Source: a virus
Taxonomy: Duplodnaviria > Heunggongvirae > Uroviricota > Caudoviricetes
Reading direction: 5' to 3' (one strand)
IMG/VR virus record: IMGVR_UViG_2541047857_000014
DNA length: 64,000 bases
Below are positions 60,783 through 61,673 of the stretch, piece by piece. Below the pieces are notes generated by a model. The model saw nothing but the letters and a program-made list of their open reading frames with translations. It made no database searches and had not been told where the DNA came from. The translations under genes and the position numbers were made by a program. Within the stretch, counting starts at the first letter, position 1. Each line of letters starts with the position of its first letter.

Positions 60783-61673
60783 TTGAAAAATTATTGGAGA
60801 GCAACAATGAATCAAAATCCATTCTCATTCTATGACTTTCTTGGATATTTAATACCAGGTGGTTTTTTTATCCTATTAATGTATTTCTGTGGTTTGACAT
60901 TCGATCTAGATATTGTTATTGACTTAAGTGAATTGCTCAGAGGTCAAAGTCAAATCTTTGGCATTTTGAACTACGCTTCAATAGTTATTATATCTTATAT
61001 AGCTGGACATTTTATTTCTATCACGTCAGCATTTTTTATCGAAAAATACATGAATAAAGAATTAGGATATCCTTCCAAATATCTATTTAAAAAATTGATA
61101 GATACCTCAGAAAGCATTTGTAGCCCATCATGCGATGAGAGAAGCGCTGATAAAAAAACAAAAATAAAGAATCGCATAATCAAATGCGTATTATGTCCAA
61201 TAATACTATGGGATTTTATAACACAAAAACTATGTTATTCTCAATCTCTACCATTTCATTTAGCTAATACAACATGGTTAATGATCAAAGAAGGTTATGA
61301 GAAAAAGTTCATAACAAATCGCCAATTATTACAAGATAAAAACGGACTTGATGATGATCTCTTCAGATTGGCATATCATTATGTTTATGAGTTTTCAAAA
61401 CAACATCAAACAAAAATTCAAAACTATGTTGCATTATATGGTTTTTGCAGAAACATATGTTTAATCTTTATAATTTCATTTTGGGTATCAGTTCCAACCT
61501 TTATTTATCGATTATGTACTCATAGTGATTATCTTTATAGTTTACTTTCAATAATGCTTAGCTTTTTCTTCGTCTATGTTTTCTATGTTGGTTTTGTTAA
61601 ATTTTATAGAAGATATACTTTAGAAGTATTAATGGCATTTGCTGTACTTCAAAGTAACGACACTATTCGTTAA
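60783..61673 (+). CDS. hypothetical multi-pass membrane protein, AT-rich cargo gene
   Basis: Hydrophobic helices at both ends, very AT-rich; probable ATG at about 60807; just upstream of xis-int. Confidence 0.5.
   Translation: MKNYWRATMNQNPFSFYDFLGYLIPGGFFILLMYFCGLTFDLDIVIDLSELLRGQSQIFGILNYASIVIISYIAGHFISITSAFFIEKYMNKELGYPSKYLFKKLIDTSESICSPSCDERSADKKTKIKNRIIKCVLCPIILWDFITQKLCYSQSLPFHLANTTWLMIKEGYEKKFITNRQLLQDKNGLDDDLFRLAYHYVYEFSKQHQTKIQNYVALYGFCRNICLIFIISFWVSVPTFIYRLCTHSDYLYSLLSIMLSFFFVYVFYVGFVKFYRRYTLEVLMAFAVLQSNDTIR

Follow-up and report, generated by a model that had tools for sequence, protein, structure and literature searches.

The window analysed here is a 64,000-nucleotide stretch of DNA (IMG/VR virus record IMGVR_UViG_2541047857_000014, Caudoviricetes), and the subject of this report is a gene on its plus strand, at 60807..61673, directly upstream of the excisionase and integrase genes of a lambdoid prophage. 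From profile comparisons, we concluded that its product, a protein of 288 amino acids (aa) with four predicted transmembrane helices, belongs to a branch of an extended Csx27-like family and would be distantly homologous to Csx27 of type VI-B1 CRISPR systems. The genes that surround its relatives suggest that it probably protects the lysogen from other phages, a reading to which we assign a probability of roughly 0.6.

The gene product is a likely distant homologue of Csx27

To delimit the family, we searched with a profile of 12 enterobacterial homologues and counted representatives as clusters at 50% identity. The search recovered 965 representatives with E ≤ 1e-3, among them 210 with E ≤ 1e-30; almost all are 260–340 aa long and align end to end with the profile. 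The family is thus very large, and uniform in that its proteins typically have 270–300 aa. The window protein matched the PADLOC model of Csx27 at E = 1.4e-5 (residues 14–276 on profile positions 4–188 of 206) and the PADLOC model tm_4, which describes a Cas13b-associated four-helix protein, at 1e-3. When 122 diverse relatives were scanned, the PADLOC Csx27 model matched 86 (best 2.2e-10) and the independent NCBIfam Csx27 model matched 19 (best 2e-6). Csx27 was the only family to recur in the PADLOC and NCBIfam scans of these relatives, and no family recurred in their Pfam scan. Weak PADLOC matches to PDC-M48A (at most six of the 122 per model, best 7e-4) and to PDC-S47 (a single relative) were confined to the relatives; among the other defence components of PADLOC-DB v2 (Kiwa, PD-lambda, PD-T4, Rst, HEC, PDC), the window protein itself matched none beyond Csx27 and tm_4.

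We rejected the gene as a bona fide Csx27, because score, context and length all fail. Its match to NCBIfam model NF040557 reached 14.9 bits (E = 0.02, residues 13–52 only) against an equivalog cut-off of 65 bits, and the 288-aa form gave no match to NCBIfam Csx27 at E ≤ 0.01. It has no cas13b neighbour, and no Cas13b-sized neighbour with a CRISPR link was found in about 60 related loci (the window was not scanned for CRISPR arrays). Finally, the protein is about 75 aa longer in its middle.

Csx27 was named in 2017, and the proposals on its biochemical role are only computational. In the passages of later articles that touch on it, the extended Csx27 family of Makarova 2019 is given four transmembrane helices (PMC7642515) and is linked to natural transformation, with a predicted membrane channel for single-stranded DNA (PMC7642515, PMC11662929). 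The gene is therefore not categorically new, since the extended family has been described computationally and a homologue from P2-like prophages has already been catalogued (see below). In the searchable literature, no paper names the accession of the window protein (WP_001075212.1) or uses the terms 'Csx27-like', 'Csx27 family' or 'Csx27 homolog', and none reports an exclusion phenotype; the accession is also absent from the DefensePredictor supplements. We found no description so far of the stand-alone prophage branch, of its behaviour as a cassette next to xis or of its conserved site on the cytoplasmic face.

Relatives lie in phage accessory slots and near defence genes

In enterobacterial prophages, the homologues always lie directly upstream of a small xis gene and an integrase gene, and the integrases beside them belong to three or more types (Arm-DNA-bind_2, lambda-type Arm-DNA-bind_1 and a shorter Phage_int_M type). 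The genes further upstream vary, and at two loci (L045 and L047; L numbers denote loci of relatives) the order is cI, a 103-aa or 93-aa open reading frame (ORF) and then the gene, without yfdQR. A more distant version occurs in P2-like prophages, where the homologue WP_000193205.1 (42–43% identity over its full length) and a DUF4760 gene lie between the portal gene gpQ and the partition genes/gpA. The gpQ/gpA region of P2 is a hotspot of anti-phage systems (Rousset et al. 2022, PMC9122126), and Table S5A of that work lists WP_000193205.1 as 'hypothetical' at least 161 times; the protein was not among the systems that were cloned and tested. Among 5426 complete E. coli genomes, the gene itself was present in 205 and the P2-type version in 289.

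The 165-aa DUF4760 gene (WP_001068329.1) always precedes the homologue in P2-like prophages, on the same strand and with a gap of 39 nucleotides (nt), as at L104 (5464–5961) and L107 (2165–2662). Its product had no PADLOC match. The two genes might form a unit specific to the P2-type branch, judging from their arrangement, and DUF4760 was rejected as a general partner, as it accompanies that branch only.

For more distant relatives, we compared 39 distinct loci whose members share less than 46% identity and which offer at least 4 kb of sequence. Neighbours included AIPR (L082) and PIN_8 (L084, L094), the PIN_8 gene of L094 ending 2 nt before the family gene, as well as C5 or N6 DNA methylases (directly upstream at L080 and L102, nearby at L091). 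At L102 (1–2357), the stop codon of an HmaB-like adenine methylase overlaps the start of the family gene, and at L080 (5743–8828) a C5 methylase ends 29 nt before it. Further neighbours of distant members are HEC-01, together with the HmaB-like methylase; AAA_23, MC2 and CTD6 with VspR; a KAP NTPase and GmrSD (L100); AAA_15 and RloB (L113); a CAP12-type TIR protein and a type I restriction R subunit; HEPN RiboL-PSP with HNH; NaeI; and a NucS-like nuclease with T5orf172, plus an integrase. The extended family is reported to associate with genes for DNA modification or transformation and with ubiquitin-like or WYL genes. We saw no competence, E1/E2/JAB or WYL genes next to the family gene in the loci sampled, and the window locus has neither these nor a DNA methylase. 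Makarova and colleagues reportedly mention, in the abstract of their 2019 paper, a 'membrane-associated DNA modification' subfamily, which the methylases at L102 and L080 would fit.

Because no neighbour family occurred in more than four of the 39 loci, the gene has no conserved partner; it is the kind of neighbour that recurs. A functional link to YfdR, an HD-type 5'-deoxynucleotidase encoded upstream of the gene in the window, was rejected as well: the pairing is seen only in prophages with the whole yfdPQR block, L045 and L047 lack yfdQR, and no neighbour family exceeds the count just given. At L004, a metagenomic locus whose family member is 34% identical, a YfbR-like HD gene lies two genes downstream, and the intervening 285-aa gene is unrelated to the family.

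Two other functions have to be weighed against this genomic background. Csx27 damps Cas13b interference, and some members adjoin or overlap nuclease or methylase genes (L102, L094, L080), which would suit a Csx27-like, membrane-anchored brake or sequestering factor that acts on another immune or toxic system, or on a cytoplasmic protein of host or phage, for example to shield the prophage or its host against autoimmunity, and is carried as counter-defence or regulatory cargo. We regard this as improbable, as the 39 loci show no conserved partner, in E. coli prophages the gene stands alone beside xis-int with upstream genes that vary, and Cas13b is present in none of the loci seen.

The other function would be lysogenic conversion, in which a membrane enzyme acts at the cytoplasmic face on a lipid-linked sugar or a lipid, the cell surface is altered and any phage resistance arises indirectly through the receptor. 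Two distant members indeed lie inside polysaccharide-synthesis clusters, one between Epimerase_2 and NAD-epimerase with WecG and Bac_transf nearby (L113) and one after Epimerase_2 and Hexapep (L100). Genes that modify the O antigen are classical int-proximal cargo of P22-type phages, gtrABC beside attP-int of P22 being an example, and the invariant His/Glu/Asp/Arg cluster described below looks enzyme-like at its place on the membrane face. Still, such loci make up only two of about 25 annotated contexts and both also contain defence genes, the prophages provide no partner transferase, and neither sequence nor fold resembles a glycosyl- or acyltransferase, a flippase or a lipid phosphatase. An envelope-modifying role thus seems hardly probable to us.

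Predicted topology places the conserved residues on the cytoplasmic face

We then mapped the predicted membrane segments and the conserved residues on the 288-aa product, as listed here.

60807..60899, plus strand: N-terminal motif (Q)NPFSxYDFLGYxIPG running into predicted helix 1, residues 1–31, from conservation and hydropathy
60960..61040, plus strand: predicted transmembrane helix 2, residues 52–78, with conserved Y64, G67, H68 and S74 in its cytoplasmic half
61041..61427, plus strand: predicted central cytoplasmic helical domain, residues 79–207, with conserved membrane-proximal ends and a variable middle (100–182)
61428..61607, plus strand: predicted transmembrane helices 3 and 4, residues 208–237 and 244–267, joined by a hypervariable periplasmic turn of 6 residues
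61608..61670, plus strand: conserved C-terminal helix, predicted to be cytoplasmic; together with the end of helix 4 it carries FxKFYRRxTLExLMA, residues 263–277

Kyte-Doolittle analysis gave four hydrophobic helices, at about 11–31, 52–78, 208–237 and 244–267, two at each end of the protein. Residues 79–207, the 129 that separate helix 2 from helix 3, include 21 lysines and arginines and the tail after helix 4 begins with KFYRRY, while the connecting loops 32–51 and 238–243 carry a single positive charge in total. Because positive charges concentrate there, the positive-inside rule predicts a cytoplasmic location for the central domain and for the two termini, which leaves periplasmic loops of only about 20 and 6 residues. 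An AlphaFold2 model based on the alignment of the 122 relatives was all-helical, with a predicted local distance difference test score (pLDDT) of 90.1 and a predicted template modelling score (pTM) of 0.89; pLDDT fell below 50 only at residues 103–106, and the long helices coincide with the hydropathy segments. The sequence-only reading of this stretch had proposed hydrophobic helices at both termini, and hydropathy and model agree on two per end. Foldseek searches with the model found nothing close in the PDB (best E = 0.85, template modelling (TM) score ≤0.22) or among the viral models of BFVD (best E = 0.69), and the family profile had no match among PDB sequences. Homology to a transporter or a housekeeping membrane protein, which that reading had named as evidence against itself, was found neither in Pfam and NCBIfam nor among PDB sequences and folds.

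Conservation was assessed on the alignment of the 122 relatives, whose identity to the window protein goes down to 25%. Residues conserved in at least 85% of them fall into four blocks: P5, F6, S7, Y9, D10, F11, L12, G13, Y14, P17 and G18 at the N terminus (85–90% or more); E79 and Y88-P89-S90 at the start of the central domain, next to the conserved positions of helix 2; H191, E195, H200, K203 and N206 at its end, followed into helix 3 by the conserved motif YVALYGFxR (R215); and F263, K265, F266, Y267, R268, E273 and M276 around and after the end of helix 4. The most variable parts, by per-region entropy, are the two periplasmic loops and cytoplasmic residues 100–182. All four conserved blocks are predicted to be on the cytoplasmic face. 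The resulting picture is one of variable surfaces on both sides of the membrane and an unchanging polar site at its inner face, although the clustering of these residues is placed by topology and not by distances in three dimensions.

These predictions bear on the function that the sequence-only reading had favoured, namely superinfection exclusion. In a true exclusion mechanism, the inner-membrane protein would block the crossing or entry of the incoming genome, perhaps because it occupies or disturbs the site of translocation from the cytoplasmic side, and the infected cell would survive. The int-proximal prophage slot and the placement in the P2 hotspot are in line with this, as is the hypervariability of the periplasmic loops, which would be expected if they faced incoming phage components. 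The link of the Csx27 family to transformation and a single-stranded DNA channel, as relayed in the relevant passages of PMC7642515 and PMC11662929 (after Makarova 2019), and the precedent of the defence protein SNIPE, which acts in the membrane at injection (PMC13190303), could also be read this way. By contrast, the protein bears no similarity to SieA or SieB of P22, and PADLOC matches were limited to Csx27, tm_4 and weak PDC candidate models. Its periplasmic exposure amounts to only about 26 residues, its deeply conserved residues are cytoplasmic and kept across very distant bacteria, unlike what is seen in phage-specific blockers, and chromosomal defence islands commonly carry family members, as prophages do. 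True superinfection exclusion is therefore rather unlikely in our view. A classical blocker of injection that works from the periplasm fits especially poorly with loops of about 20 and 6 residues and a conserved cytoplasmic surface, and the exclusion-factor interpretation as a whole is partly supported.

The gene is a discrete cassette in an early-left operon

The limits of the gene and of the cassette that contains it are given below, together with the flanking genes.

60807..61673, plus strand: coding sequence, including the stop codon, of the four-helix membrane protein of 288 aa (WP_001075212.1, UniProt A0A0B1MB33, PHROG 12528)
60796..60799, plus strand: Shine-Dalgarno sequence GGAG, 7 nt before ATG 60807
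60694..61683, plus strand: low-GC swap-in cassette of 990 bp (GC 0.282), which replaces the yfdS-type genes of sister prophages
60174..60698, plus strand: left flank, yfdR, encoding the HD-type 5'-deoxynucleotidase; context only, not a partner
61715..63054, plus strand: right flank, xis (excisionase, 61715–61921) and int (tyrosine integrase of the Arm-DNA-bind_2 type, 61882–63054)

An ORF at 60783..61673 on the plus strand was confirmed in the window sequence. A start at TTG 60783, which would give 296 aa, was rejected because three observations agree on ATG 60807: it lies 7 nt after GGAG at 60796–60799, RefSeq WP_001075212.1 (288 aa; UTI89) begins there, and all homologues start at the equivalent ATG with the N terminus MNQNPFS. 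The true start is thus almost certainly ATG 60807, giving a product of 288 aa; the roughly 290-aa ORF that had been reported at 60783–61673 holds up, while its start does not. Because the homology of L045 to the window begins at 60794, the ribosome-binding site evidently moves together with the gene.

The gene has a guanine-plus-cytosine (GC) content of 0.284 (0.21 at third codon positions), compared to 0.461 in yfdQ, 0.459 in yfdR, 0.454 in xis, 0.441 in int and 0.491 in the whole window. It is the lowest-GC 867-bp stretch of the 64 kb (z = -2.7). The claim that it is very rich in adenine and thymine (AT) compared with yfdQ, yfdR and int (0.284 versus 0.44–0.46) is borne out, and homologues of 78–85% identity are similarly AT-rich. 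The ratio of nonsynonymous to synonymous substitution rates (dN/dS) against these homologues is 0.16–0.23, and the comparison points to a real gene under purifying selection. An identical protein is present on at least 1000 contigs. Pfam holds no family for it, and PHROG 12528, which it matches at E = 9e-174, is annotated as 'unknown function'; public sources name no function and label the protein hypothetical everywhere. An Rfam scan of positions 57000–64000 of the window gave no match.

A 1301-bp stretch around the gene is 99.9% identical to E. coli UTI89, S88, APEC O1 and ATCC 11775, and by sequence the surroundings correspond to an E. coli chromosome of phylogroup-B2 type with a lambdoid prophage next to glaH/gabDT. 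On the plus strand the order is a cI-like ymfK, yfdP, yfdQ (DUF2303), yfdR, the gene, xis and int, which agrees with the proposed position at the end of the early-left order, directly upstream of xis-int. E. coli C3 shares yfdR, xis and int with the window; its homology to the window ends at 60693 and restarts at 61684, and the 990 bp in between are replaced by yfdS and a small ORF. In a megablast comparison with the 5426 E. coli genomes, 1342 matched one or both flanks, with breakpoints at query positions 94 and 1085. The gene is thus a discrete, single-gene, low-GC cassette of the moron type, and topology and breakpoints together uphold the idea of a multi-pass membrane protein in an accessory slot. 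That membrane proteins would often be found at this position did not hold, going by annotation in four related E. coli prophages (transmembrane topology was not predicted for these genes): their slots contain yfdS/yfdT-type small genes, HNH, DUF551, ead/Ea22 or an exonuclease. In P22 the slot is occupied by eaC, and EaC has no similarity to the gene product.

Other cargo of the same prophage was noted on either side. Between int and the chromosomal glaH, from window positions 63046–64000 (minus strand) and beyond, lie three opposite-strand genes, which in UTI89 RefSeq encode a 205-aa protein (PHROG 30059), a STAS-like domain protein and a 303-aa hypothetical protein. The 205-aa protein had no Pfam or PADLOC match. 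At this position, a C3 prophage that shares the integrase has a DarT/DarG system. By its gene content, the region looks like a second cargo slot and possibly holds an undescribed defence system. Between the cI-like repressor gene and yfdP, a 170-aa ORF (57813–58325, minus strand) runs opposite to its neighbours; its N terminus resembles a signal peptide (MGAIYVKRLILSVALIIPIASNAS...) and it belongs to no Pfam family, so that it may encode a secreted protein or lipoprotein and be another moron. Upstream of yfdP, at 58350–58800, there is a short GC-rich stretch (0.56–0.57), annotated in UTI89 RefSeq as a frameshifted hypothetical pseudogene.

A probable protective role and how it might be exerted

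If the gene protects the lysogen, it might do so as a self-contained membrane sensor-effector that is gated by infection, a mechanism that we put forward tentatively and at less than even odds. In this model, the cytoplasmic domain would sense an infection cue through its variable middle. The cluster of invariant polar residues on the cytoplasmic side of the membrane (D10, H68, S74, E79, H191, E195, H200, K203, N206, R215, K265, E273) would then open, or catalyse, an event at the level of the membrane, for example an ion leak or a loss of membrane potential, and phage development would stop. RexB, Csx28 and the transmembrane effectors of the cyclic-oligonucleotide-based anti-phage signalling system (CBASS) and the pyrimidine cyclase system for antiphage resistance (Pycsar) offer an analogy. 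We slightly favour such a gated effector because the protein and its conserved residues are mostly cytoplasmic, because they are conserved in distant bacteria and because the family also occurs in chromosomal defence islands.

Several observations weigh against protection, or against this way of achieving it. The defence role is guilt by association, argued from gene neighbourhoods, and all sources call the protein hypothetical. In E. coli, Csx27, the only relative tested so far, lowered interference by both cognate and non-cognate Cas13b, up to 1e5-fold, and Csx27 fusions to red fluorescent protein showed no membrane localisation (bioRxiv 10.1101/092577). Some relatives have housekeeping neighbours (L014, L152, L156, L175), and those of L100 and L113 lie in polysaccharide-synthesis operons. 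As for the predicted structure, the modelled fold matches no known channel, and the His/Glu/Asp cluster could equally mark an enzyme. Expression raises a further difficulty. A standard scan found no promoter upstream of the gene, and a terminator scan found none between yfdR and the gene and none flanking the gene on the plus strand. A relaxed scan gave one candidate.

60750..60777, plus strand: weak sigma-70-like site TTATTA-16-TATATT (8 of 12 matches), candidate promoter of the gene itself

With this weak candidate as the only promoter-like site upstream and no terminator after yfdR, expression in the lysogen is questionable. Read-through from the early-left operon would instead turn the gene on upon induction, an awkward moment for a toxic effector.

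The same observations raise the question of whether the gene takes part in any conflict at all. It could be an accessory of the prophage's own cycle, expressed from the early-left operon at induction, or selfish baggage without a measurable phenotype: it shares its strand with yfdPQR, no terminator separates them, the weak candidate is the only promoter-like site, and some members sit among housekeeping genes. Moreover, two prophage contigs carry frameshifted, split copies (L072 7965–8722 and L086 7540–8372), because of which we assume that the gene is sometimes lost by decay. Strong purifying selection and motifs that are deeply conserved over 965 clusters argue in the other direction, as does the fact that unrelated phages have repeatedly and independently acquired the gene in accessory slots, and we consider the absence of a conflict role unlikely.

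Going beyond this one gene, the Csx27-like family could be an immune module that is widespread, works autonomously as a single four-helix membrane protein and represents a new mechanistic class, with the invariant cytoplasmic-face His/Glu/Asp/Arg site as its active centre and the Csx27 of type VI-B1 as a copy recruited by Cas13b. We regard this broader proposal as possible but doubtful. If it were true, the prophage version would be the first direct handle on Csx27-type function, a question since 2017, in a tractable host and with hundreds of strains at hand. The survey already reveals a large set of stand-alone Csx27 relatives, of which one branch is common in E. coli (205 genomes with the lambdoid and 289 with the P2 version) and has been captured repeatedly by unrelated temperate phages at accessory slots, including a known anti-phage hotspot. 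An obscure CRISPR accessory protein of Bacteroidota thereby becomes testable by standard coliphage genetics. Should the gene defend, it would represent a compact single-gene membrane system with a fold unseen among solved structures, and would help to explain why B2 strains of clinical importance (UTI89, S88 and APEC O1 type) resist phages. Should it not, it would caution that a membrane gene close to int need not be an exclusion factor.

Further cargo genes in the window

Three other places in the window caught our attention. Not far from the window's first position, at 561–2261, low-GC DNA encodes a protein of 566 aa that contains an AIPR (abortive infection phage resistance) domain. At 10042–12536, a P2-type portal gene (10042–11079) is followed by a low-GC 469-aa ORF without a Pfam family (11127–12536, minus strand), which by its position would be gpQ/gpA hotspot cargo of a second, P2-like prophage. 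At 19567–21814, a second tyrosine integrase gene (19567–20586; Int_N and Phage_integrase) is followed directly by a very AT-rich 407-aa ORF (20591–21814), again without a Pfam family and thus another candidate cargo gene beside an integrase.

Comparison with known systems

The closest named relative is Csx27 of type VI-B1 (Smargon et al. 2017). Points in common are the homology of the family to two separate Csx27 profiles, the two-plus-two layout of four predicted transmembrane helices with no other recognisable domain, and family members next to nucleic-acid-targeting immune genes. The window protein differs by being about 75 residues longer, all of them in the central cytoplasmic domain, and by being encoded by a stand-alone, phage-borne, enterobacterial gene, whereas Csx27 comes from Bacteroidota and is found with cas13b. 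The P2 cargo protein WP_000193205.1 is a true full-length homologue of the same architecture, although it occurs in another phage family and another slot and its DUF4760 companion is not at the window locus.

With RexB, Csx28, the transmembrane effectors of CBASS and Pycsar and KwaA of Kiwa, the window protein has in common that they are small multi-pass inner-membrane proteins of prophages or defence islands. It has no PADLOC sequence match to any of them, and they rely on another protein as their sensor (RexA, Cas13b, a cyclase or KwaB), whereas the window protein has no conserved partner.

Exclusion proteins of the SieA/SieB type are likewise encoded by prophages and located in the inner membrane; T4 Imm and HK97 gp15 are further classical superinfection-exclusion proteins. 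When SieA and SieB of P22 were aligned to the profile of the 122-sequence family with hhalign, the probabilities were 2.2% and 1.7%, and the window protein matched no PHROG annotated as exclusion. Compared with the classical exclusion proteins, the family is much larger and more widespread, and its conserved surface is predicted to be cytoplasmic and not periplasmic.

Finally, SNIPE, or PD-lambda-1, is a single-gene, constitutively membrane-anchored defence protein of E. coli that acts at injection (Saxton et al. 2026, PMC13190303). It is built differently, from one transmembrane helix, DUF4041 and a GIY-YIG nuclease, none of which is seen in the window protein; yet the working parts of SNIPE face the cytoplasm, as those of the window protein would, and SNIPE shows that cells can be defended directly at the membrane's inner face.

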